Source: Pinctada imbricata
Lineage: Eukaryota
DNA: 64,000 nucleotides
Reading direction: 5' to 3'
Assembly: GCA_033119305.1 (NCBI GenBank)
Contig: VSWD01000002.1
Location: 9,274,974-9,338,973 of the forward strand
The number at the start of each line of letters is the position of its first letter. Position 1 is the stretch's first letter. The translations under genes were made by a program, and so were the position numbers. Below are positions 2,655-56,860 of this stretch, in pieces. Below the pieces are notes generated by a model that worked only from the letters and a program-made list of their open reading frames with translations, ran no database searches and had not been told where the DNA came from.

Positions 2655-3590
2655 TGAAAATAGGACCAACATACAGAGACTGATACAAGAATGATACAAT
2701 CTCCACAGAAACACGAATGACAAACAGACGGAGACAATGACACAGCTCCACAGAAACACGAAGGACAAACAGACGGAGACAATGACACAAGCTCCACAGA
2801 AACACGAATGACAAACAGACAGAGACAATGACACAGCTCCATAGAAACACGAATGACAAACAGACAGAGACAATAACACAGCACCATAGAAACACGACGG
2901 ACAAACAGACGGAGACAATGACACAAGCTCAACAGAAACACGAAGGACAAACAGACGGAGACAATGACACAGCTCCACAGAAACACGAAGGACAAACAGA
3001 CGGAGACAATGACACAGCTCCACAGAAACACGAATGACAAACAGACAGAGACAATGACACAAGCTCCACAGAAACACGAAGGACAAACACACAGAGACAA
3101 TGACACAGCTTCATAGAAACACGAAGGACAAACAGACGGAGACAATGACACAAGCTCCACAGAAACACGAATGACAAACAGACAGAGACAATGACACAAG
3201 CTCCACAGAAACACGAATGACAAACAGACAGAGACAATGACACAGCTTCATAGAAACACGAAGGACAAACAGACAGAGACAATGACACAGCTCCACAGAA
3301 ACACGAAGGACAAACAGACAGAGACAATGACACAGCTCCACAGAAACACGAAGGACAAACAGACGGAGACAATGACACAGCTCCACAGAAACACGAAGGA
3401 CAAACAGACGGAGACAATGACACAGCTCCACAGAAACACGAAGGACAAACAGACGGAGACAATGACACAAGCTCCACAGAAACACGAAGGACAAACAGAC
3501 GGAGACAATGACACAGCTCCACAGAAACACGAAGGACAAACAGACGGAGACAATGACACAAGCTCCACAGAAACACGAAGGACAACTTAT
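2655..3590. repeat. Minisatellite, about 45-46 bp unit (caaacagacggagacaatgacacagctccacagaaacacgaagga) x about 20
   Basis: Direct periodicity visible in the sequence. The overlapping ORFs on both strands are repeat artefacts. Confidence 0.9.
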
Positions 3591-6795: not shown

Positions 6796-7467
6796 TCATG
6801 GAGTCCCGTCGTCACAGTCAGTCAGAGTGCAAGTTTTAAGAATGCGCTTGTACAAGACTGTAGATTGGTCATGTACCAAGCCTATAGTCCGTCTGGTGAC
6901 ATTAGGATCATACCCACGGTATAAAAGGCGTTTGATGATTCTGACGCATTTTCGATAGTGATGTTGTCTATCTTTGATCCTTCTTATCTTGTTAATTATG
7001 TCACTATAAAATGCAGGTAGTGAAAAACCCAAAGTAATATACTCTGTTGCCTGTATTGGTCCGAATTTCAGAAGAAGTTGACAATGATTTTTGTAAAATT
7101 TCCAGAAAGTCTTTACTAGTTTGTGAAAGCGAAAACCTTGTCCTAAAAGTTTCTTGGTAATTTGTAAATTTCTACTATGAAAATCCAAAACATCAGTACA
7201 TGCTCTAGCATACCGGATGAGCTGTGAAATATAGATACCATAGGACGGTAATCTAGGAACATCACCGTCAAGCCAGGGGAAATTTACTATGTTAAATCCA
7301 AAATCATCTCTTTTGTAATACACACTTGTATGGATCTCTCCATTAACAATTTTGATATTTAGGTCCAAAAAGGGTTTTTCTGTGTTTGAAACGTTTACCT
7401 TGTTTAAAATCAATTCTTGTGGATAAATAACATTTTTATATTTCTCAAAAACAGGATTGTCGATCAA
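6796..7467 (-). mobile_element. Second fragment of the same RT family (C-terminal part: YYKRDDFGFNIVNFPWLDGDVPRLPSYGIYISQLIRYARA...)
   Basis: Protein-level similarity to the 520-1149 ORF over about 60 residues. Further small fragments sit at 9940-10069 (+) and 19687-19780 (+, YRKCVRIIKSLLYRGY). Confidence 0.55.
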
Positions 7468-9480: not shown

Positions 9481-10479
9481 CAACGTACAGTTTGTATCGG
9501 TGTCTTTCCCAAAGTTGCGCACTGGCAAATCGTGACAAAGGGACTCCATAACTCTTTTAAATCTCGTCAGAGAAGACTGGGTTCTGATTCTCTGTCCTCA
9601 GACTTCTCGAGTGATTGATCTTGAGCTCGCTTCAGCCAGCAGAGCACAGACTGTTATACGCATGCCATAGAATATTTAAGCTCAATATACATAGAATCTG
9701 TGTTACGAGGGGCCGCTGCGTTTAACTTTCTCGTTTGTGATATCACCTAACAGTGAAGTTTTATGCTTATACAACGATTGTGCGTTTATTGAGATCTCTG
9801 TGTATCTGGATAAGTGGGAGGGTTGTGCGCATGTAAGCCGGATAACCACACCATTTGCTAATAGCAGATGGCTGTCCAAATACGGCGCCGGATGCACATT
9901 AGTGCTCAACAAAGCAAATGTCATAAACAAGAAAAAACCTATTTGGACCTCAATTTTAAACAGAGAAATTTATACAAGTGTGTATGACAAAAGGGATCCA
10001 TCATATTACACTTTTCTTTGCTTGACGGTGATGTTCCTAGACTACCATCATACGATATTTACATACTAGAATCTGAACTCATTCTATACACTAGGACATG
10101 TACTTATGGGTTTTTTTTTATTATTATTATTTTCACAGGAGAAATATGCAATTTATTTACAAAGTGTAATGTCTATGTTTCCACTTTCATAAACTAGACT
10201 TTCTGGGCCTTTTACAAAAATTACTTTGCGACGGGTGTTGCATGCAATCAGGAGACGCTGACTCTCCCCGGGCACCTGGTCTCACTTCGGAATGTTATTC
10301 ATTCTTTTGTTTGCAACCGTTCGAATAGGAATTCAAATGATTTTGCCTTGTCTTCTCGACTTTTTTACCTCTAGACTGAATAACTGATATGTAATTCTTT
10401 GATGTTCATTTCATCTTCGTTTGAAATTTGGACCTACACATGCATCAGACTATACTTCCTTTTGAATTTCTTAACCTAC

Positions 10480-10735
10480 CTTTATGGTGACATATCAAAG
10501 CCTATATGGTGACATATCAAAGCCTTTATGGTGACATATCGAAGCCTTTATGGTGACCTATCAAAGCATTTATGGTAAGATATCAAAGCCTTTATGGTGA
10601 CATATCAAAGCCCTTATGGTGACATATCAAAGCCTTTATGATGACATATCAAAGCATTTATGGTGAGATATCAAAGCCTTTATGGTGACATATCAAAGCC
10701 TTTATGGTGACATATTAAAGCCTTTATGGTGACAA
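10480..10735. repeat. Minisatellite, 22-bp unit (tatggtgacatatcaaagcctt) x about 11
   Basis: Direct periodicity. Confidence 0.9.
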
Positions 10736-17899: not shown

Positions 17900-19610
17900 C
17901 TTTGGTTTACTTTTTGATTATTTTTGGAACAAGGTTCTGCTTTTGGTATAAATTCAAGTCATTATTGGAACAAGGTCTTGCTTCGGCATACCGTATATTG
18001 CAAGTCATTACTGGAACAAGGTCCTGCTTCGGCATACATTTCAAGTTGTTTGTGGAACAAGGCCTTGCATTTGGGCTTTTGGTATACATTAAAAATAAGT
18101 TTTGGAACAACATCCTGCCCTGACATACATTTCAAGTCATTATTGGACCAAAGCCATGCTTCGGCATGCATTGCAAGTCATTTTGGAACAAATCTTTGCT
18201 TTGGCATTCATTTCAAGTTATTTTGGAATAAAGGCCCTGCTTCGGCATACTTTGCAAGTCATTTTGGAAAAAAATCCAATGGCATGCTTTGGTATACATT
18301 TCAAGTTATTTTTGGAACAAGGCCCTGCTTCGGCATACATGTCAAGTCATTATTTGAACAAGGCCATGCTTCGGCATACATTGCAAGTCATTTTGGAACA
18401 AGGTCCTTTTTTCGGCATACATTGCAAGTTATTTGTGGAACAAGGCCTAGCTTTTGGTATACATTAAAAATCAGTTTTTTAACAACGTCCTGCTCTGGTA
18501 TACATTATAATTAAGTCATTATTGGAACAAGGCCCTGTTTCGGCATACAGTATATTGCAAGTCATTATTAGAACAAGGCCCTGTTTCGGCATACAGTATA
18601 TTGCAAGTCATTATTGGAACAAGGCCCTGTTTCGGCATACAGTATATTGCAAGTCATTATTGGAACAAGGCCCTGTTTCGGCATACAGTATATTGCAAGT
18701 CATTATTGGAACAAGGTCCTGTTTCGGCATACAGTATATTGCAAGTCATTATTGGAACAAGGCCCTGCTTCGGCATACCGTATATCTGAAGTCATTATTG
18801 GAACAAGGCCCTGCTTCGGTATACCGTATATTGCAAGTCATTATTGGAACAAGGCCCTACTTCGGCATACCGTATATCTCAAGTCATTATTGGAACAAGG
18901 CCTTGCTTCGGTACCGTATATTCCAAGTCATTATTGGAACAAGGTCCTGCTTCAGCATACCGTATATTGCAAGTCATTATTGGAACAAGGTCCTGCTTCG
19001 GTACCGTATATTGCAAGTCATTATTGGAACAAGGCCTTACTTCGGCATACATTATATTGCAAGTCATTATTGGAACAAGGCCCTGCTTCGGTATACCGTA
19101 TATTGCAAGTCATTATTGGAACAAGGCCCTACTTCGGCATACCGTATATTGCAAGTCATTATTAGAACAAGGCCCTACTTCGGCATACCGTATATCTCAA
19201 GTCATTATTGGAACAAGGTCCTGCTTCGGTACCGTATATTGCAAGTCATTATTGGAACAAGGCCCTGCTTCGGCATACAGTATATTGCAAGTCATTATTG
19301 TAACAAGGCCCTGCTTCGGCATACAGTATATTGCAAGACATTATTGGAACAAGGCCCTGCTTAGGTATACAGTATATTGCAAGTCATTATTGGAACAAGG
19401 CCCTGCTTCGGCATACCGTATATTCCAAGTCATTATTGGAACAAGGCCCTACTTCGGCATACCGTATATTACAAGTCATTATTGTGTCCTATGACACATT
19501 GGAACAAGGCTCTGTTTCGGCAAATACTGCAAGCCATTTTGTAACAAGGTCCTGCTTCGGCATATATTGCAAGTCATTATTGGAACAATTAAGTCACTTC
19601 TTAGTATAAA
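17900..19610. repeat. Satellite, about 46-bp unit (gcaagtcattattggaacaaggccctgcttcggcataccgtatatt) x about 36, 1.7 kb
   Basis: Regular period with point variants and some 9-bp deletions. Long + strand ORFs (18522-19494 etc.) are periodic-repeat artefacts. Confidence 0.92.
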
Positions 19611-22732: not shown

Positions 22733-22765
22733 ATGGCGTCTACGAAGGTTAAACAACAACAACAG
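22733..22765 (+). CDS. ATP1A: Na+/K+-ATPase alpha subunit, putative coding exon 1 (MASTKVKQQQQ), ends at donor CAG|gtaaat
   Basis: ATG in good Kozak context (acagagATGG). The short ORF ends at a consensus GTAAAT donor in phase 0 and joins exon 2 in frame. Exon 2 has no in-frame ATG before the conserved RADSYR N-terminal motif, so an upstream coding exon is required. Alternative first exons cannot be excluded. Confidence 0.45.
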
Positions 22766-25179: not shown

Positions 25180-25362
25180 AACCCTCGGGCGGACAGCTAC
25201 CGCTATGCTGTCACCCCGGGAGGGGAAGAGGTGGGGAAGAAGAAGAAGGGGAAGAAAGCCAAGAAGGAAAATCTCGATGACCTCAAACAGGAATTGGAGA
25301 TGGACGAACATAAAGTCCCCATTGAAGAATTATATCAGAGACTGGAAACAGACCCCAATGTG
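25180..25362 (+). CDS. ATP1A: Na+/K+-ATPase alpha exon 2 (NPRADSYRYAVTPGGEEVGKKKKGKKAKKENLDDLKQELEMDEHKVPIEELYQRLETDPNV)
   Basis: Acceptor tatttttag|AAC and donor GTG|gtaagc; 183 nt, phase 0-0. The lysine-rich N-terminal region and the KENLDDLKQEL / EELYQR motifs are typical of invertebrate Na/K-ATPase alpha. Confidence 0.85.
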
Positions 25363-27895
25363 GTAAGCGCTAACAGTAACATACAATAAAACATAAAGTC
25401 CCCATTGAAGAATTATATCAGAGACTGTAAACAGACCCCAATGTGGTAAGTGCTGACAGTAACATACAATAAAACATAAAGTCCCCATTGAAGAATTATA
25501 TCAGAGACTGTAAACAGACCCCAATGTGGTAAGTGCTGACAGTAACATACAATAAAACATAAAGTCCCCATTGAAGAATTATATCAGAGACTGGAAACAG
25601 ATCCCAATGTGGTAAGTGCTGACAGTAACATACAGTAAAACATAAAGTCCCCATTGAAGAATTATATCAGAGACTGGAAACAGACCCCAATGTGGTAAGT
25701 GCTAACAGTAACATACAATAAAACATAAAGTCCCCATTGAAGAATTATATCAGAGACTGGAAACAGACCCCAATGTGGTAAGTGCTAACAGTAACATACA
25801 ATAAAACATAAAGTCCCCATTGAAGAATTATATCAGAGACTGGAAACAGACCCCAATGTGGTAAGTGCTGACAGTAACATACAGTAAAACATAAAGTCCC
25901 CATTGAAAAATTATATCAGAGACTGGAAACAGATCCCAATGTGGTAAGTGCTGACAGTAACATACAGTAAAACATAAAGTCCCCATTGAAGAATTATATC
26001 AGAGACTGTAAACAGACCCCAATGTGGTAAGCCCTAACAGTAACATACAATAAAACATAAAGTCCCCATTGAAGAATTATATCAGAGACTGGAAACAGAC
26101 CCCAATGTGGTAAGTGCTGACAGTAACATACAGTAAAACATAAAGTCCCAATTGAAGAATTATATCAGAGACTGGAAACAGACCCCAATGTGGTAAGTGC
26201 TGACAGTAACATACAATAAAACATAAAGTCCCCATTGAAGAATTATATCAGAGACTGGAAACAGACCCCAATGTGGTAAGTGCTAACAGTAACGTACAAT
26301 AAAACATAAAGTCCCCATTGAAGAATTATATCAGAGAATTGAAACAGACCCCAATGTGGTAAGCCCTAACAGTAACATACAATAAAACATAAAGTCCCCA
26401 TTGAAGAATTATATCAGAGACTGGAAACAGACCCCAATGTGGTAAGTGCTAACAGTAACGTACAATAAAACATAAAGTCCCCATTGAAGAATTATATCAG
26501 AGAATTGAAACAGACCCCAATGTGGTAAGTGCTAACAGTAACGTACAATAAAACATAAAGTCCCCATTGAAGAATTATATCAGAGACTGGAAACAGACCC
26601 CAATGTGGTAAGCCCTAACAGTAACATACAGTAAAACATAAAGTCCCCATTGAAGAATTATATCAGAGTCTGGAAATAGACCCCAATGTGGTAAGTGCTA
26701 ACAGTAACATACAGTAAAACATAAAGTCCCCATTGAAGAATTATATCAGAGACTGGAAACAGACCCCAATGTGGTAAGTGCTGACAGTAACATACAATAA
26801 AACATAAAGTCCCCATTGAAGAATTATATCAGAGACTGGAAACAGACCCCAATGTGGTAAGCCCTAACAGTAACATACAATAAAACATAAAGTCCCCATT
26901 GAAGAATTATATCAGAGACTGGAAACAGACCCCAATGTGGTAAGTGCTAACAGTAACATACAATAAAACATAAAGTCCCCATTGAAGAATTATATCAGAG
27001 ACTGGAAACAGACCCCAATGTGGTAAGTGCTGACAGTAACATACGGTAAAACATAAAGTCCCCATTGAAGAATTATATCAGAGACTGGAAACAGATCCCA
27101 ATGTGGTAAGTGCTAACAGTAACATACAATAAAACATAAAGTCCCCATTGAAGAATTATATCAGAGACTGGAAACAGACCCCAATGTGGTAAGTGCTGAC
27201 AGTAACATACAGTAAAACATAAAGTCCCCATTGAAGAATTATATCAGAGACTGGAAACAGACCCCAATGTGGTAAGTGCTGACAGTAACATACAATAAAA
27301 CATAAAGTCCCCATTGAAGAATTATATCAGAGACTGGAAACAGACACCAATGTGGTAAGTGCTGACAGTAACATACAATAAAACATAAAGTCCCCATTGA
27401 AGAATTATATCAGAGACTGGAAACAGACCCCAATGTGGTAAGTGCTAACCGTAACATACAGTAAAACATAAAGTCCCCATTGAAGAATTATATCAGAGAC
27501 TGGAAACAGACCCCAATGTGGTAAGCGCTAACAGTAACATACAATAAAACATAAAGTCCCCATTGAAGAATTATATCAGAGACTGGAAACAGACCCCAAT
27601 GTGGTAAGTGCTGACAGTAACATACAATAAAACATAAAGTCCCCATTGAAGAATTATATCAGAGACTGGAAACAGACCCCAATGTGGTAAGCGCTAACAG
27701 TAACAGTAACATACAGTAAAACATAAAGTCCCCATTGAAGAATTATATCAGAGACTGGAAACAGACCCCAATGTGGTAAGCGCTAACAGTAACATACAGT
27801 AAAACATAAAGTCCCCATTGAAGAATTATATCAGAGACTGGAAACAGACCCCAATGTGGTAAGCGCTATAAACAGTAACAGTAACATACAGTAAA
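25363..27895. repeat. Intronic tandem array, 83-bp unit x about 30, each unit being the last 52 nt of ATPase exon 2 plus the first 31 nt of intron 2, including the GTAAGT donor
   Basis: The unit cataaagtccccattgaagaattatatcagagactggaaacagaccccaatgtg|gtaagtgctgacagtaacatacaataaaa repeats immediately downstream of the authentic exon 2 donor. Confidence 0.9.
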
Positions 27896-28143
27896 ACATA
27901 ATGTCCTTTTTTGAAGAAATTCAAGATTCATCATGCTGCAAATTCCAAATTTTAACACCACATGTCATTTCTTCAAAAAGGAGAAAAAAAAAACATGAGT
28001 TAGCACTAATTTTGTTTTAAAGAAATTGGGGGAAAATAGAATATTTTGTTGGAACTTAATGCAAAGTTAAACGATTTATATTATAACTTTTCCCCCAACT
28101 TAAAAATGCCCTTGAATCATGTCATATTAATTCTGCTTTGCAG

Positions 28144-28347
28144 GGACACTCCGTGGAGGAAGCCAAGAGAATTTTGGAAAGAGATGGTCCCAATGAGTTA
28201 ACGCCCCCTAAAACTACTCCAGAATGGGTCAAGTTTTGTAAGCAGCTTTTTATGGGCTTTTCCATGTTGCTGTGGATAGGAGCCATTCTGTGTTTTATAG
28301 CTTACTCAATCCAGGCCTCGGCGTATGAAGATCCACCGGGTGATAAC
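28144..28347 (+). CDS. ATP1A: Na+/K+-ATPase alpha exon 3 ([22 protein letters not shown]...[13 protein letters not shown]; TM1 and first extracellular loop)
   Basis: Acceptor ctttgcag| and donor AAC|gtaagt; 204 nt. Strong similarity to the ARDGPNALTPP...[10 protein letters not shown] block. Confidence 0.9.
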
Positions 28348-28854: not shown

Positions 28855-28968
28855 TTGTACTTAGGTATTGTGCTCACTGCTGTTGTCGTAGTTACGGGAG
28901 TATTCTCCTATTACCAAGAAGCTAAAAGTTCTAAAATTATGGATTCCTTCAAAAACATGGTCCCACAG
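28855..28968 (+). CDS. ATP1A: Na+/K+-ATPase alpha exon 4a ([38 protein letters not shown]; TM2), first copy of a duplicated exon
   Basis: Acceptor ccatttcag| and donor CAG|gtagga; 114 nt, phase 0-0. Confidence 0.85.
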
Positions 28969-29474: not shown

Positions 29475-29588
29475 TTATATTTAGGTATTGTGTTAACGGC
29501 GGTCGTGGTTGTTACGGGGTGTTTCTCGTACTACCAAGAAGCCAAAAGTTCACGAATTATGGACTCCTTTAAAAACATGGTTCCTCAG
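29475..29588 (+). CDS. ATP1A: Na+/K+-ATPase alpha exon 4b ([38 protein letters not shown]), second copy, likely mutually exclusive with 4a
   Basis: Acceptor ctattttcag| and donor CAG|gtaacc; 114 nt. It encodes the same 38 residues as 4a with only 2 amino-acid differences, despite about 25 synonymous nucleotide differences. Confidence 0.8.
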
Positions 29589-33228: not shown

Positions 33229-34996
33229 TTGCAAAACTCGGCTCTTAATTTGATGTGAGACGGGCGGGCGGGCGGGCGTCTGGGCGGGCGGGAGGGCGTC
33301 AACAATTGGTTTCCGGACTATAAGTCAACTACGAAAGAGGCTATAACAATGAAACTTCATACACTTACTCACCATTAGTCAAGGATGAGCCCTATTGATT
33401 TTGGGGTCAAAAGGTCAAAGGTCAAGGTCACAGGACTCAGATGATTGAAAATGGTTTCCGGACCATATTATAGCCTGTATTGCACCTATAATCATGAAAC
33501 TTGCCAGAAATGTTTCCCTTGAATCAAGGATGAGGCCTATTGATTTTGGGGTCAAAAGGTCAAAGGTCAAGGTCACAGGACTCAGATGATTGAAAATGGT
33601 TTCCAGACCATATTTCAGCCTGTATTGCACCTATAATCATGAAACTTGCCAGAAATGTTTCCCTTGAATCAAGGATGATGCCTATTGATTTTGGGGTCAA
33701 AAGGTCAAAGGTCAAGGTCGCAGGACTCTGATGATTGAAAATGGTTTCCTGGCCATATTTTAGCCTGTATTGCACCTAAAGTCATGAAACTTGCCAGAAA
33801 TGTTTCCCTTGAATCAAGGATGAGGCCTATTGATTTTGGGGTCAAAAGGTCAAAGGTCAAGGTCACAGGACTCAGATGATTGAAAATGGTTTCCAGACCA
33901 TATTTCAGCCTGTATTGCACCTATAATCATGAAACTTGCCAGAAATGTTTCCCTTGAATCAAGGATGATGCCTATTGATTTTGGGGTCAAAAGGTCAAAG
34001 GTCAAGGTCACAGGACTCTGATGATTGAAAATGGTTTCCTGGCCATATTTTAGCCTGTATTGCACCTATAATCATGTAACTTGCCAGAAATGTTTCCTGT
34101 GAATAGAAAATGACCACTTTTGATTTTGGGGTCAAAAGGTCAAAGGTCAAGGTCACAGGACTCTGATGATTGAAAATGGTTTCCTGGCCATATTTTAGCC
34201 TGTATTGCACCTAAAGTCATGAAACTTGCCAGAAATGTTTCCCTTGAATCAAGGATGAGGCCTATTGATTTTGGGGTCCAAAGGTCAAGGTCACAGGACT
34301 CTGTTGATTGAAATTGGTTTTCGGACCATATTTCAGCCTGTATTGCACCTATAATCATGTAACTTGCCAGAAATGTTTTCTGTGAATAGAAAATGACCAC
34401 TTTTGATTTTGGGGTCAAAAGGTCAAAGGTCAAGGTCACAGGACTCTGATGATTGAAAATGGTTTCCTGGCCATATTTTAGCCTGTATTGCACCTAAAGT
34501 CATGAAACTTGCCAATAATGATTCCCTTGAATCAAGAATGACCCCTATTGATTTTGGGGTCAAAAGGTCAAAGGTCAAGGTCACAGGACTCCGATGATTG
34601 AAAGTGGTTTCCGGACCATATTTCAGCCTGTATTGCAATTATAATCATGAAGCTTGCCAGAAATGTTTCCCATGGATCAAGGATGACCACTATCAATTTT
34701 GGGGTTCAAAGGTCAAAGGTCAAGGTCACAGGACTTAGATGATTAAAAATGATTTTCCGACTGAATTTGAGCCTGTATTGCACCTATTATCATGTAACTT
34801 GCCAGAAATGTTTCCTATTAATTTTGGGGTCAACAGATCAAAGGTCAAATTCATAGGACTCGTTAATTGAAAATGGTTTCTGAATTATATATGAATGTGG
34901 ATCAACCTGAAACATGCTAATAATGTTTCCCATCTGTCGAGACCATATTCAAATCATGTATATTTTACTTATATTCAAGTTTTGCAACTCGGCACT
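33229..34996. mobile_element. TIR-flanked non-autonomous element in ATPase intron 7: termini GCCGAGTTGCAAAACT (palindromic at the 5' end), a GGGCGGGC-rich head, and about 10 tandem 145-bp units containing AGGTCAAAGGTCAAGGTCA
   Basis: 5' end agccgagttgcaaaactcggct and 3' end agttttgcaactcggc form inverted termini. Internal 145-bp periodicity; the six 71-aa minus-strand ORFs and the one 117-aa ORF are artefacts. This resembles the satellite-carrying MITE/Helitron-N elements reported in bivalves. Confidence 0.6.
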
Positions 34997-35932: not shown

Positions 35933-36435
35933 GTAGGTCTCTTCCTTCTTTCTTGCTGAGAATAGTTTAAAAAAAAAGCCAAAAATAATATAAAAAAAAA
36001 GTAAGTATAGAAAGTGTTTCTTGAACATGTACAGATAAGAGATAAGCCAAGATAGTTTATTGGGTTTATTCCCCATACGCCTACTCGGTTAAAATCATAT
36101 TTTGATAATTAGGTGTGAACGGGGTCCTCAAAAGGGTACATGTGTACTAATTAGTTACCTGATTTACCTGTACAAGTAGAAATCATACATATTCATTTTC
36201 TCTATCTCTATCAACTTTGTGCTACACGTGAAAATGATGAAAAATATGTCTGATTCATTGTTTAAAAATGAGTCTGAGATAAAGCTATCTTTTAATGTAG
36301 CAAAGTTATAGTTTAACTAAAAGATATAATATACATGTATATACACATGCATTTACGTGAACTTCATATTTTAATTATGTTTTTAACGATTGAAGTTTTA
36401 CAAAAATATATATATCCGACCGTTTTCTTTTTTCT

Positions 36436-36470
<35 letters not shown>

Positions 36471-45389: not shown

Positions 45390-45510
45390 ATTCACCTGGT
45401 GGTTCCCTGCCATGCCATTCAGTTTACTTATCTTTATATATGATGAATGCAGAAAGTACATCCTCAGACGTAATCCCGGAGGTTTTGTTGAAAGAGAGAC
45501 ATACTATTAA
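45390..45510 (+). CDS. ATP1A: Na+/K+-ATPase alpha terminal coding exon ([40 protein letters not shown]; TM10 and C-terminal ETYY)
   Basis: Acceptor tattttcag| and stop TAA at 45508-45510; 121 nt. The canonical C-terminal ...ETYY is present. A candidate polyA signal AATAAA lies near 45954, but the true 3' end is unverified. Confidence 0.9.
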
Positions 45511-52574: not shown

Positions 52575-53722
52575 GCTGAGCGATATAGTCCCCTACCGGC
52601 GGCATATATTTATGTCCTGCAACTCTGCCTATGAATTACTCTTCAATTAAACATATATGAGTTTAAATTAAACTTACTGTCTGTGCAGCTTTAATCGATT
52701 CGAAAAAGAGGTCAAGCGTGACGAAAGTTGAACTTGCTCTGTAGCTATCCAAGACTAAGCTGAGTATCAAATTTCACCTGAATATCTCTATTTGCTGCAG
52801 AAAGAAGTCTGGAAAACTGACAAAAACTGAATTTTCCAAGTCATAAAGGGGCATAACTCCTCGAAAAATAGGTCAAGCGTGATGAAAGTCAAACTTGCTC
52901 TGTAACTATCCAAGACCAAGCTGTGTATCAAATTTCATCTGAATATCTTCATCCATTGCAGAAAAAAAGTCCAGAAAACTGACAAAAACTTAATTTTCCA
53001 AGTTATAGAGGGGCATAAACTCCTTGAAAAATAGGTCAAGCGTGACGAAAGTCAAACTTGCTCTGTAACTAATCAAGACCAAACTGTGTATCAAATTTCA
53101 TCTGAATATCTCCATCCGTTGCAGGGAAGGTCCGGAAAACTGACAAAAACTGAATTTTCAAAGTCATCAAGGGGCATAACTCCTTGAAAAATAGGTCAAG
53201 CGTGATGAAAGTCAAACTTGCTCTGTAACTATCCAAGACCAAGCTGTGTATCAAATTTCATCTGAATATCTCCATCCGTTGCAGAAAAAAGTCCGGAAAA
53301 CTGACAAAAACTGAATTTTCCAAGTCATCAAGGGGCATAACTCCTGGAAAAATGCGTCAAGCGTAATGAAAGTCAAACTTGCTCTGTAACTATCCAAGAC
53401 CAAGCTGTGTATCAAATTTCATCTGAATATCTCCATCCGTTGCAGAAAAAAGTCCGGAAAACTGACAAAAACTTGATTTTCCAAGTCATCAAGGGGCATA
53501 ACTCCTCGAAAAATGGGTCAAGCGTGACGAAAGTCAAACTTGCTCTGTAACTATCCAAGACGAAGCTGTGTATCAAATTTCATCTGAATATCTCTATCCG
53601 TTGCAGAAAAAAGTCCGGAAAACTGATATTCGGACAGACGGAGGGACAGACGGACGGACGGACGGACAGACAGACCGAGAGGAAACTAAGAGTCCCCTTC
53701 GGCGTTGCCGGTAGGGGACTAA
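52575..53722. mobile_element. TIR-flanked MITE-like element (TIR TAGTCCCCTACCGGC) with about 6 internal tandem units of about 150-160 bp and a (GACR)n microsatellite tail; it lies inside a tetraspanin intron
   Basis: 5' tatagtcccctaccggcggcat and 3' ggcgttgccggtaggggactaaat are inverted. Internal periodic units (ggtcaagcgtgatgaaagtcaaacttgctctgtaactatccaagaccaagctgtgtatcaaatttcatctgaatatc...) and ggacagacggagggacagacggacgg at 53631-53675. Confidence 0.7.
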
Positions 53723-56293: not shown

Positions 56294-56317
56294 GTATAAT
56301 GTACAGATCATGTTCAT

Positions 56318-56860
56318 GTGAATAAATTGATATTCATTATTGTTGTGAATGAACTGATATTCATTATTGTTGTGGGTGAACTGATATTCATTAATATTGT
56401 AAATGTATTGATATTCATTATTGTTGTGAATGAACTGATATTCATTATTGTTGTGAATGAACTGATATTCATCATTGTTGTGAATAAACTGATATTCATT
56501 ATTGTTGTGAATAAACTGATATTCATTATTGTTGTGAATGTATTGATATTCATTACTGTTGTGAATTAACTGATATTCATTATAGTTGTGAATGAACTAA
56601 TATTCATTATTGTTTTGAATGAACTAATTTTCATTATTGTTGTGAATGTATTGATATTCATTATTGTTGTGGGTGAACTGATATTCATTAATATTGTGAA
56701 TGTATTGATATTCATTATTGTTGTGAATGAACTGATATTCATTATTGTTGTGAATGAACTGATATTCATTATTGTTGTGAATAAACTGATATTCATTATT
56801 GTTGTGAATAAACTGATATTCATTATTGTTGTGAATGAACTGATATTCATTATTGTTGTA
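56318..56860. repeat. Minisatellite, 27-bp unit (tgaatgaactgatattcattattgttg) x about 20
   Basis: Direct periodicity; the overlapping ORFs on both strands are artefacts. Confidence 0.9.

Follow-up and report, generated by a model that had tools for sequence, protein, structure and literature searches.

A minisatellite spanning the exon 2/intron 2 boundary of the Na+/K+-ATPase alpha gene reiterates its splice donor 30 times in the bivalve Pinctada imbricata

The DNA considered here is a stretch of 64,000 nucleotides from Pinctada imbricata (assembly GCA_033119305.1, contig VSWD01000002.1, positions 9,274,974 to 9,338,973 of the forward strand), hereafter called the window, that contains the complete Na+/K+-ATPase alpha gene of Pinctada fucata/imbricata. 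At the end of exon 2 of this gene begins an array of 31 full copies of an 83-bp unit; the first copy carries the authentic exon 2/intron 2 junction and each of the 30 others brings one further 5' splice donor motif, here called a decoy, into the intron. We consider this array to be probably a near-neutral minisatellite in which the exon-proximal donor prevails over its copies. The gene was modeled by exact-match chaining from the ATG at 22733 to the stop at 45507, and the features around the junction are as follows (positions refer to the window; slashes mark splice junctions):

22733-45507, + strand: coding region of Na+/K+-ATPase alpha, 20 coding exons, all GT-AG, ending in ...ERETYY and the stop codon
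25180-25362, + strand: exon 2, 183 nt, 61 codons, phase 0 at both ends, reading NPRADSY...ELYQRLETDPNV
25363-28143, + strand: intron 2, 2781 nt, with the acceptor ctttgcag/GGACAC
28144-28347, + strand: exon 3, 204 nt

The spliced model matches the deposited protein AYN73065.1 (our P0121, 'sodium/potassium-transporting ATPase subunit alpha [Pinctada fucata]') with 100% identity and full coverage over 1034 amino acids. The sequence cluster of this protein also contains KAK3107351.1 from the Pinctada imbricata genome, and orthologues of other molluscs are 85-87% identical to the host protein. The motifs TGES, DKTGT, and TGDGVND all lie at 32-44 kb of the window, on the + strand, the C-terminus reads ETYY, and the matching proteins carry the Pfam domains PF00690, PF00122, PF13246, PF00702, and PF00689. 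Full-length homology and motifs thus place the product among the Na+/K+-ATPase alpha subunits (P-type ATPases of type IIC), and with its 20 GT-AG exons and all catalytic motifs the gene is intact. A word-indexed protein search with exons 2 and 3 missed the 100% identical full-length Pinctada protein, which was recovered with a full-length query, and negatives from that search are therefore weak. The literature search gave no match for AYN73065 and no paper on the structure of the Pinctada Na+/K+-ATPase gene.

The match of 100% to AYN73065.1 is obtained only if donor 1, between positions 25362 and 25363, is joined to 28144, and the deposited protein runs uninterrupted across this junction as ...ETDPNV/GHSVEE.... 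AYN73065.1 requires donor 1 because splicing from a later donor would retain one or more units, with their TAA, in the mRNA: from any decoy, the reading continues as VVSANSNIQ and then meets TAA, an in-frame stop nine codons on. The model thus agrees with a first-pass annotation of the locus, made from the letters alone, which had placed the authentic exon 2/intron 2 junction at the head of the array and had foreseen that use of the decoys would truncate the protein.

Tandem repeats in the window were called with Tandem Repeats Finder, and the units were then cut in register. The program reports a single array at 25307-27868 (period 83, 30.8 copies, 96% matches, 0% indels) whose score of 4678 is by far the highest among the ca. 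25 arrays in the window. The junction motif AATGTGGTAAG (AATGTG/GTAAG) occurs 31 times with exact 83-bp spacing, a step of 89 bp being the lone exception, and the cut in register gives 31 full units of 83 bp, of which units 29 and 31 carry insertions of 6 and 9 bp (89 and 92 bp):

25307-25389, + strand: unit 1, in which the 3'-terminal 56 nt of exon 2 meet the first 27 nt of intron 2 at the authentic donor GTG/GTAAGCGC
25390-27894, + strand: units 2-31, the 30 extra copies, with one decoy donor each
27895-27918, + strand: diverged partial copy, AACATAATGTCCTTTTTTGAAGAA, to be compared with AACATAAAGTCC-CCATTGAAGAA at the unit start

The authentic GT occupies 25363-25364. The boundaries that the first-pass annotation had given, 25363 and 27895, are exact, being the G of this GT and the first base past the last full unit, and its count of about 30 extra copies directly 3' of the exon 2 boundary is matched by the 30 copies after unit 1. 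Its figure of 52 exonic nt per unit needs correction, as each unit comprises 56 exonic nt (AACATAAAG...AATGTG) and 27 intronic nt. The extra units contribute 2505 nt to the 2781-nt intron 2, of which ca. 276 nt would be left without them. The array is an intronic head-to-tail repeat with a unit length within the 10-100 bp of a minisatellite, and its first monomer, unit 1, holds the authentic exon-intron junction.

The unit length of 83 is not divisible by 3, and the units, read directly, contain stops in all three + strand frames. Stops in the intronic part had been pointed out before, and they do exist, including the ctgTAAacag variant in units 2, 3, and 9, but the one that counts is a TAA in frame at unit positions 81-83, which is present in all units and ends the reading ...ETDPNV-VSANSNIQ.

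Across the 29 units of 83 bp that were compared, 16 of 83 columns are variable. Neighboring units can be identical (2 and 3, 5 and 6), and units 12, 13, 14, and 15 alternate between states, as expected of local slippage or unequal exchange; this map fits the proposal of the first-pass annotation that the unit variants may record unequal exchange. Directly 3' of unit 31, AACATAATGTCCTTTTTTGAAGAA aligns locally and in register with the unit start, with 19 matches in 24 positions, a score that 1.3% of shuffled controls attain anywhere; this segment is either an old, decayed terminal (32nd) unit or a 12-bp direct repeat that seeded or mediated the first duplication. These details bear on the possibility of an assembly artefact, in which a much shorter repeat has been expanded or collapsed and the true locus has one or few copies. 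Near-identical tandem units are error-prone in assembly, and one assembly was examined. However, 16 variable columns in structured combinations, two insertion units, variants at the edges, and a diverged partial copy at the terminus are the marks of a real, evolving array, and analogous arrays are present in the independent assemblies of Pecten and Tegillarca described below, so that we regard such an artefact as very unlikely.

The position and phase of intron 2 are conserved in four other bivalves, in which the orthologous intron is short and free of tandem repeats:

Solemya velum: orthologous intron 2 of 761 nt, no tandem repeat
Crassostrea virginica: orthologous intron 2 of 236 nt, no tandem repeat
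Pecten maximus: orthologous intron 2 of 146 nt, no tandem repeat
Tegillarca granosa: orthologous intron 2 of 555 nt, no tandem repeat

This comparison, which the first-pass annotation had proposed, indicates that the array is lineage-specific, recent, and not conserved, since intron 2 is array-free in all four species. Searches with parts of the locus were negative throughout: a phmmer search with the 52-aa minus-strand open reading frame (ORF) of the array against 1.84 billion cluster representatives gave 0 matches, exact look-ups in the assembly collection gave no record of the array ORF, of the ORF of exon 3 in the genome, or of protein P0241 from the P. imbricata annotation, and the intron-to-exon joint specific to the array was absent from metagenome contigs of the Joint Genome Institute (JGI) in an exact scan (0 matches). 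Look-ups of isoform proteins of Argopecten and Mytilus gave no record either.

The 30 decoys fall into three types, with GTG/GTAAGTGC in 22 units, GTAAGCGC in four, and GTAAGCCC in another four. Positions -3 to +5 are invariant in 31 of 31 units, +6 varies between C and T, and +7 between G and C; four decoys equal the real site over -3 to +8, and the decoys as a whole are pseudo-sites identical or near-identical to the authentic donor. A comparison of donor strength had likewise been suggested by the first-pass annotation, and we ran it as the duplex energy with the 5' end of U1 (AUACUUACCUG), which is -10.2 kcal/mol for GTAAGTGC and -8.0 kcal/mol each for GTAAGCGC, GTAAGCCC, and the real donor, making 22 of 30 decoys stronger than the authentic site by U1 pairing. 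Units at either end of the array (1, 27, 29, 30, and 31) carry the GTAAGCGC state, which suggests that it is the ancestral state of the donor, and the GTAAGT of the interior units (GTAAGTGC) may have arisen by a CpG-to-TpG change that spread through unit turnover.

Arrays of this kind are known from human genes. The VNTR (variable number tandem repeat) in intron 7 of F7 (IVS7, for intervening sequence 7) consists of five to nine copies of a 37-bp monomer of which the first spans the exon-intron boundary (Borensztajn et al. 2006, PLoS Genet 2:e138; PMC1557585). Work with 50 constructs showed that all pseudo-sites of F7 IVS7 are functional, yet the most upstream donor alone is selected, and this choice held against pseudo-sites of higher U1 complementarity, in line with a selection oriented from 5' to 3' (PMC1557585). 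Boundary-spanning minisatellites also occur in IFI6 (6-16) intron 2 with 25 pseudo-sites, CBS IVS13 with 15-20 repeats, LMNB2 with 10-15 copies of 100 bp, and PDGF intron 4 with 16-18 copies of 81 bp (PMC1557585). As in F7, the Pinctada gene has its authentic donor followed by pseudo-donors in an intron of an essential gene, and its deposited protein requires the most upstream site. The dimensions differ, with a 37-bp unit, 4 nt of exon, and five to nine copies in F7 against an 83-bp unit, 56 nt of exon, and 31 copies in Pinctada, and while the pseudo-sites of F7 are strictly identical to its real donor, 22 of 30 in Pinctada are stronger (GTAAGT versus GTAAGC). In IFI6-16, CBS, LMNB2, and PDGF the reiterated donors likewise lie 3' of the real one, and copy number and unit size come very close to those of Pinctada, though the hosts of these arrays are all vertebrate genes and Pinctada is a mollusc. 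Donor usage and polymorphism in F7 are experimental results, whereas the Pinctada array is known from the sequence of one assembly. By structural criteria, the Pinctada array is a boundary-spanning minisatellite with reiterated 5' pseudo-splice sites of the F7 IVS7 type. The first-pass annotation had called it unusual, which in kind it is not, given the human examples in F7, IFI6-16, CBS, LMNB2, and PDGF and seven more cases in bivalve orthologues (see below); the class is already known, and this array is apparently the first to be noted in a mollusc, as we found no description of boundary-spanning minisatellites from bivalves or other molluscs in the literature searched.

Nineteen AATAAA hexamers lie at unit joints between 25385 and 27890, each ca. 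20 nt 3' of a U1-type donor motif, in addition to 10 AGTAAA. An array with these properties could be functional: appreciable and perhaps regulated use of the decoys would give transcripts with premature termination codons that undergo nonsense-mediated decay (NMD), and this unproductive splicing would tune expression of the pump, or the 31 U1-binding sites would form a platform for the U1 small nuclear ribonucleoprotein by which splicing or transcription is enhanced or the AATAAA hexamers are suppressed. The better U1 pairing of most decoys, the invariant donor core, the position of the hexamers relative to the donor motifs, and the use of the nearest pseudo-sites in human IFI6-16 and CBS all speak for this reading. 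However, the invariance of the core is not significant given the 16 of 83 variable columns (P = 0.17), so that selection on it is unsupported; the orthologous intron has no array in the four other bivalves; capture of a junction is no commoner than a random-seed model predicts (see below); and arrays of equal size that lack splice motifs abound in the window. Suppression of AATAAA would not be an independent function either, because the hexamers are made by the repeat itself. Altogether, we think that a functional array is unlikely. Since most decoys are stronger U1 targets and the gene encodes the pump that chiefly serves osmoregulation in this euryhaline bivalve, one might also imagine the array as a copy-number-dependent dial in which NMD of decoy-spliced transcripts, with VNTR length or splicing-factor levels as its setting, would determine pump output, an idea that more broadly would take in hundreds of donor and acceptor arrays of bivalves, some of them in frame; this, too, seems improbable to us.

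Three further candidate explanations were rejected. Masking of the decoys by RNA structure fails because a three-unit RNA fold is weaker than shuffled controls (z = +2.6) and because unit 1 shares the same local sequence anyway. Recursive splice sites, i.e., juxtaposed 3' and 5' splice sites within a long intron, resemble the decoys in being intronic consensus 5' splice-site motifs, but they need a pyrimidine tract and AG/GTAAGT, and the sequence upstream of the decoys (...ACAGACCCCAATGTG/GTAAGT) has neither an AG at -2/-1 nor a pyrimidine tract. With GTG/GTAAG, an A-rich upstream sequence, and no AG, the decoys cannot serve as ratchet points. The units are also no alternative or mutually exclusive exon copies, as they hold only the 3' 56 nt of the exon without acceptor context, have stops in all frames, and are not a multiple of 3 in length.

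The same gene has captured splice junctions in tandem repeats elsewhere among bivalves. We found seven further junction-capturing arrays or duplications in the orthologous gene, six in Pecten maximus (locus L003, LR736850.1:183513-218752) and one in Tegillarca granosa (locus L004, CM056611.1:18621903-18639005):

L003 20517-22404: Pecten donor array, 38 copies of 50 bp, beginning at the donor /GTAAGT
L003 27492-28275: Pecten donor array, 28 copies of 28 bp, beginning at ...DKLVNER/GTATAG
L003 28923-29959: Pecten acceptor array, 22 copies of 47 bp, tttgtattttag/ACGTACGTTCAGAGGA
L003 25828-26136: Pecten acceptor array, nine copies of 34 bp, taactag/GTGTTGCTATGG
L003 12584-12656: Pecten acceptor array, three copies of 24 bp
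L003 30277-30343: Pecten acceptor-side duplication, two copies, ttttccacag/GAATCACC...
L004 9405-10079: Tegillarca donor array, 11 copies of 60 bp at the end of exon 10, ...FNSSNKYQ/GTAAGT

These arrays lie in different introns and hence arose independently. The acceptor arrays of Pecten are the mirror case of the donor arrays, lying upstream of the exon with the real acceptor in the last copy, and according to the annotated products the real site is the exon-proximal copy in every Pecten and Tegillarca case. By analogy with F7, the acceptor arrays suggest that the site contiguous with the real exon wins, as exon definition predicts. The Tegillarca unit is a multiple of 3 with a frame that stays open through nine units, so that use of its decoys would insert 20-aa repeats with no stop. 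The annotated Tegillarca product KUTeg_006232 (993 aa) contains a 13-nt 'exon 10' within the array that was probably mispredicted because of the repeat. A minisatellite is present in nearly every intron of the Pecten Na+/K+-ATPase gene; in intron 4 (L003 8498-12489), ca. 150 copies of a 27-bp unit (or ca. 75 of 54 bp) each hold CTAG/GTAAGA, a near-consensus donor, together with the complement ACTTAC. This unit does not derive from the neighboring junction (CAG/GTACAG) and makes up another large set of intronic pseudo-donors.

Eight junction-capturing duplications in three orthologues of one gene (the seven arrays counted below and the two-copy acceptor duplication of Pecten) might point to a junction-directed mutation, e.g., replication slippage coupled to transcription or splicing, that preferentially seeds bivalve minisatellites at splice junctions. 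We therefore compared the captures with a geometric random-seed model for the 24 arrays in the Pinctada, Pecten, and Tegillarca genes that have a period of at least 10 and at least 2.5 copies, with a chance of capture per array of 2(u-1)/(L0+u-1), where u is the unit length and L0 the length of the host intron without its array. Seven captures were observed against 4.6 expected (P(>=7) = 0.15), with array-free introns of ca. 140-600 nt and units of 24-98 bp, and the exonic fraction of the captured units varies from ca. 10% to 80%. The array-free introns of this gene are short (most have 91-236 nt in C. virginica), so that capture occurs roughly as geometry predicts and a junction-directed mechanism is unneeded; we consider such a mechanism very unlikely. 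Strong purging of junction captures is not apparent either.

The window contains further minisatellites apart from the boundary-spanning array, of which six are listed here:

2701-3585: 19.5 copies of 45 bp
10479-10734: 11.6 copies of 22 bp
17955-19484: 34 copies of 46 bp
33379-34815: 10 copies of 145 bp, in intron 7 of the ATPase gene
52700-53626: 5.8 copies of 161 bp
56317-56859: 20 copies of 27 bp

None of these six touches a splice junction of the ATPase gene, and the presence of many unrelated minisatellites in the window indicates a minisatellite-rich genomic background. Intron 9 of the gene also contains a run of ca. 47 T (36423-36469, 86% pure). Outside of the gene, two mutually similar ORFs at 520-1149 and 6796-7467 on the minus strand encode 209 and 223 aa with the motifs ...YIDDVL... 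and ...KRDDFGF..., and are putative fragments of a retroelement reverse transcriptase.

Exon 4 of the Pinctada gene (114 nt, region of transmembrane segment 2, with V/C and K/R as alternative residues) is present as a tandem duplicate with a good acceptor and donor at each copy:

28855-28968, + strand: first copy of exon 4 (4a)
29475-29588, + strand: second copy of exon 4

The arrangement has the features of a tandem exon duplication of the mutually exclusive kind, and judged from the sequence the two copies are probably mutually exclusive exons. The P. fucata protein AYN73065.1 uses copy 4a, and exon 4 is single in the four other bivalve orthologues. In KAK3107351.1 (1072 aa) the two copies occur together, probably through mis-annotation.

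Taken together, the structure, history, and phylogenetic distribution of the array make it quite probable that it is a lineage-specific, near-neutral minisatellite (VNTR) of intron 2 in which the first monomer straddles the exon 2/intron 2 boundary and the exon-proximal donor wins. It would have originated when a tandem duplication copied a segment of 83 bp that reaches from 56 nt of exon across the donor into 27 nt of intron, with the short direct repeat AACATAA(A/T)GTCC at both ends of the 83-bp interval as the likely substrate. Replication slippage and unequal exchange would then have amplified the copies to 31 and homogenized them. Because the ancestral introns were short, a random seed of tandem duplication often overlaps a splice junction. 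The mature mRNA would be made from donor 1, the most upstream and exon-proximal one, which by analogy with F7 would win by its position, through exon definition or selection oriented from 5' to 3', and not by its strength. Rare use of a decoy would lead to the stop nine codons later and probably to NMD. The array thus appears to be a near-neutral by-product of a minisatellite-rich genome for which no function has been demonstrated.

Several points weigh against this interpretation. As the U1 pairing shows, the 22 decoys with GTAAGT surpass the real donor with GTAAGC by one base pair. The silence of the decoys is argued from the deposited protein, whose cDNA origin is taken from the type of its accession, and from the analogy with F7, and the rule of positional selection was established in mammalian cells, not in molluscs. 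The copy number, moreover, comes from a single assembly. Even in the human systems, F7 pseudo-sites with a perfect consensus, the only ones to compete, can shift splicing, and IFI6-16 and CBS constitutively use the two nearest pseudo-sites besides the real one (PMC1557585).

Arrays of this kind also matter in practice because they mislead gene predictors, as seen for Tegillarca, where the model is truncated at the array; P. imbricata likewise has a probable gene-model error, with both copies of a duplicated exon included. Taken alone, the Pinctada array is a curiosity, i.e., a large and clean case of a class that has been studied for donor choice in a few human genes. Its value lies in being a natural experiment, with 30 decoys that mostly exceed the real site in strength, in a gene that is both essential and highly conserved, and with parallel donor- and acceptor-side arrays of the same gene in scallop and blood clam. 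If RNA shows clean use of the exon-proximal sites, the rule that position beats strength, known from mammalian F7 minigenes, would also apply to lophotrochozoans and at 3' splice sites, and if there are hundreds of such arrays in bivalves, they would be the richest natural test-bed for positional splice-site choice.

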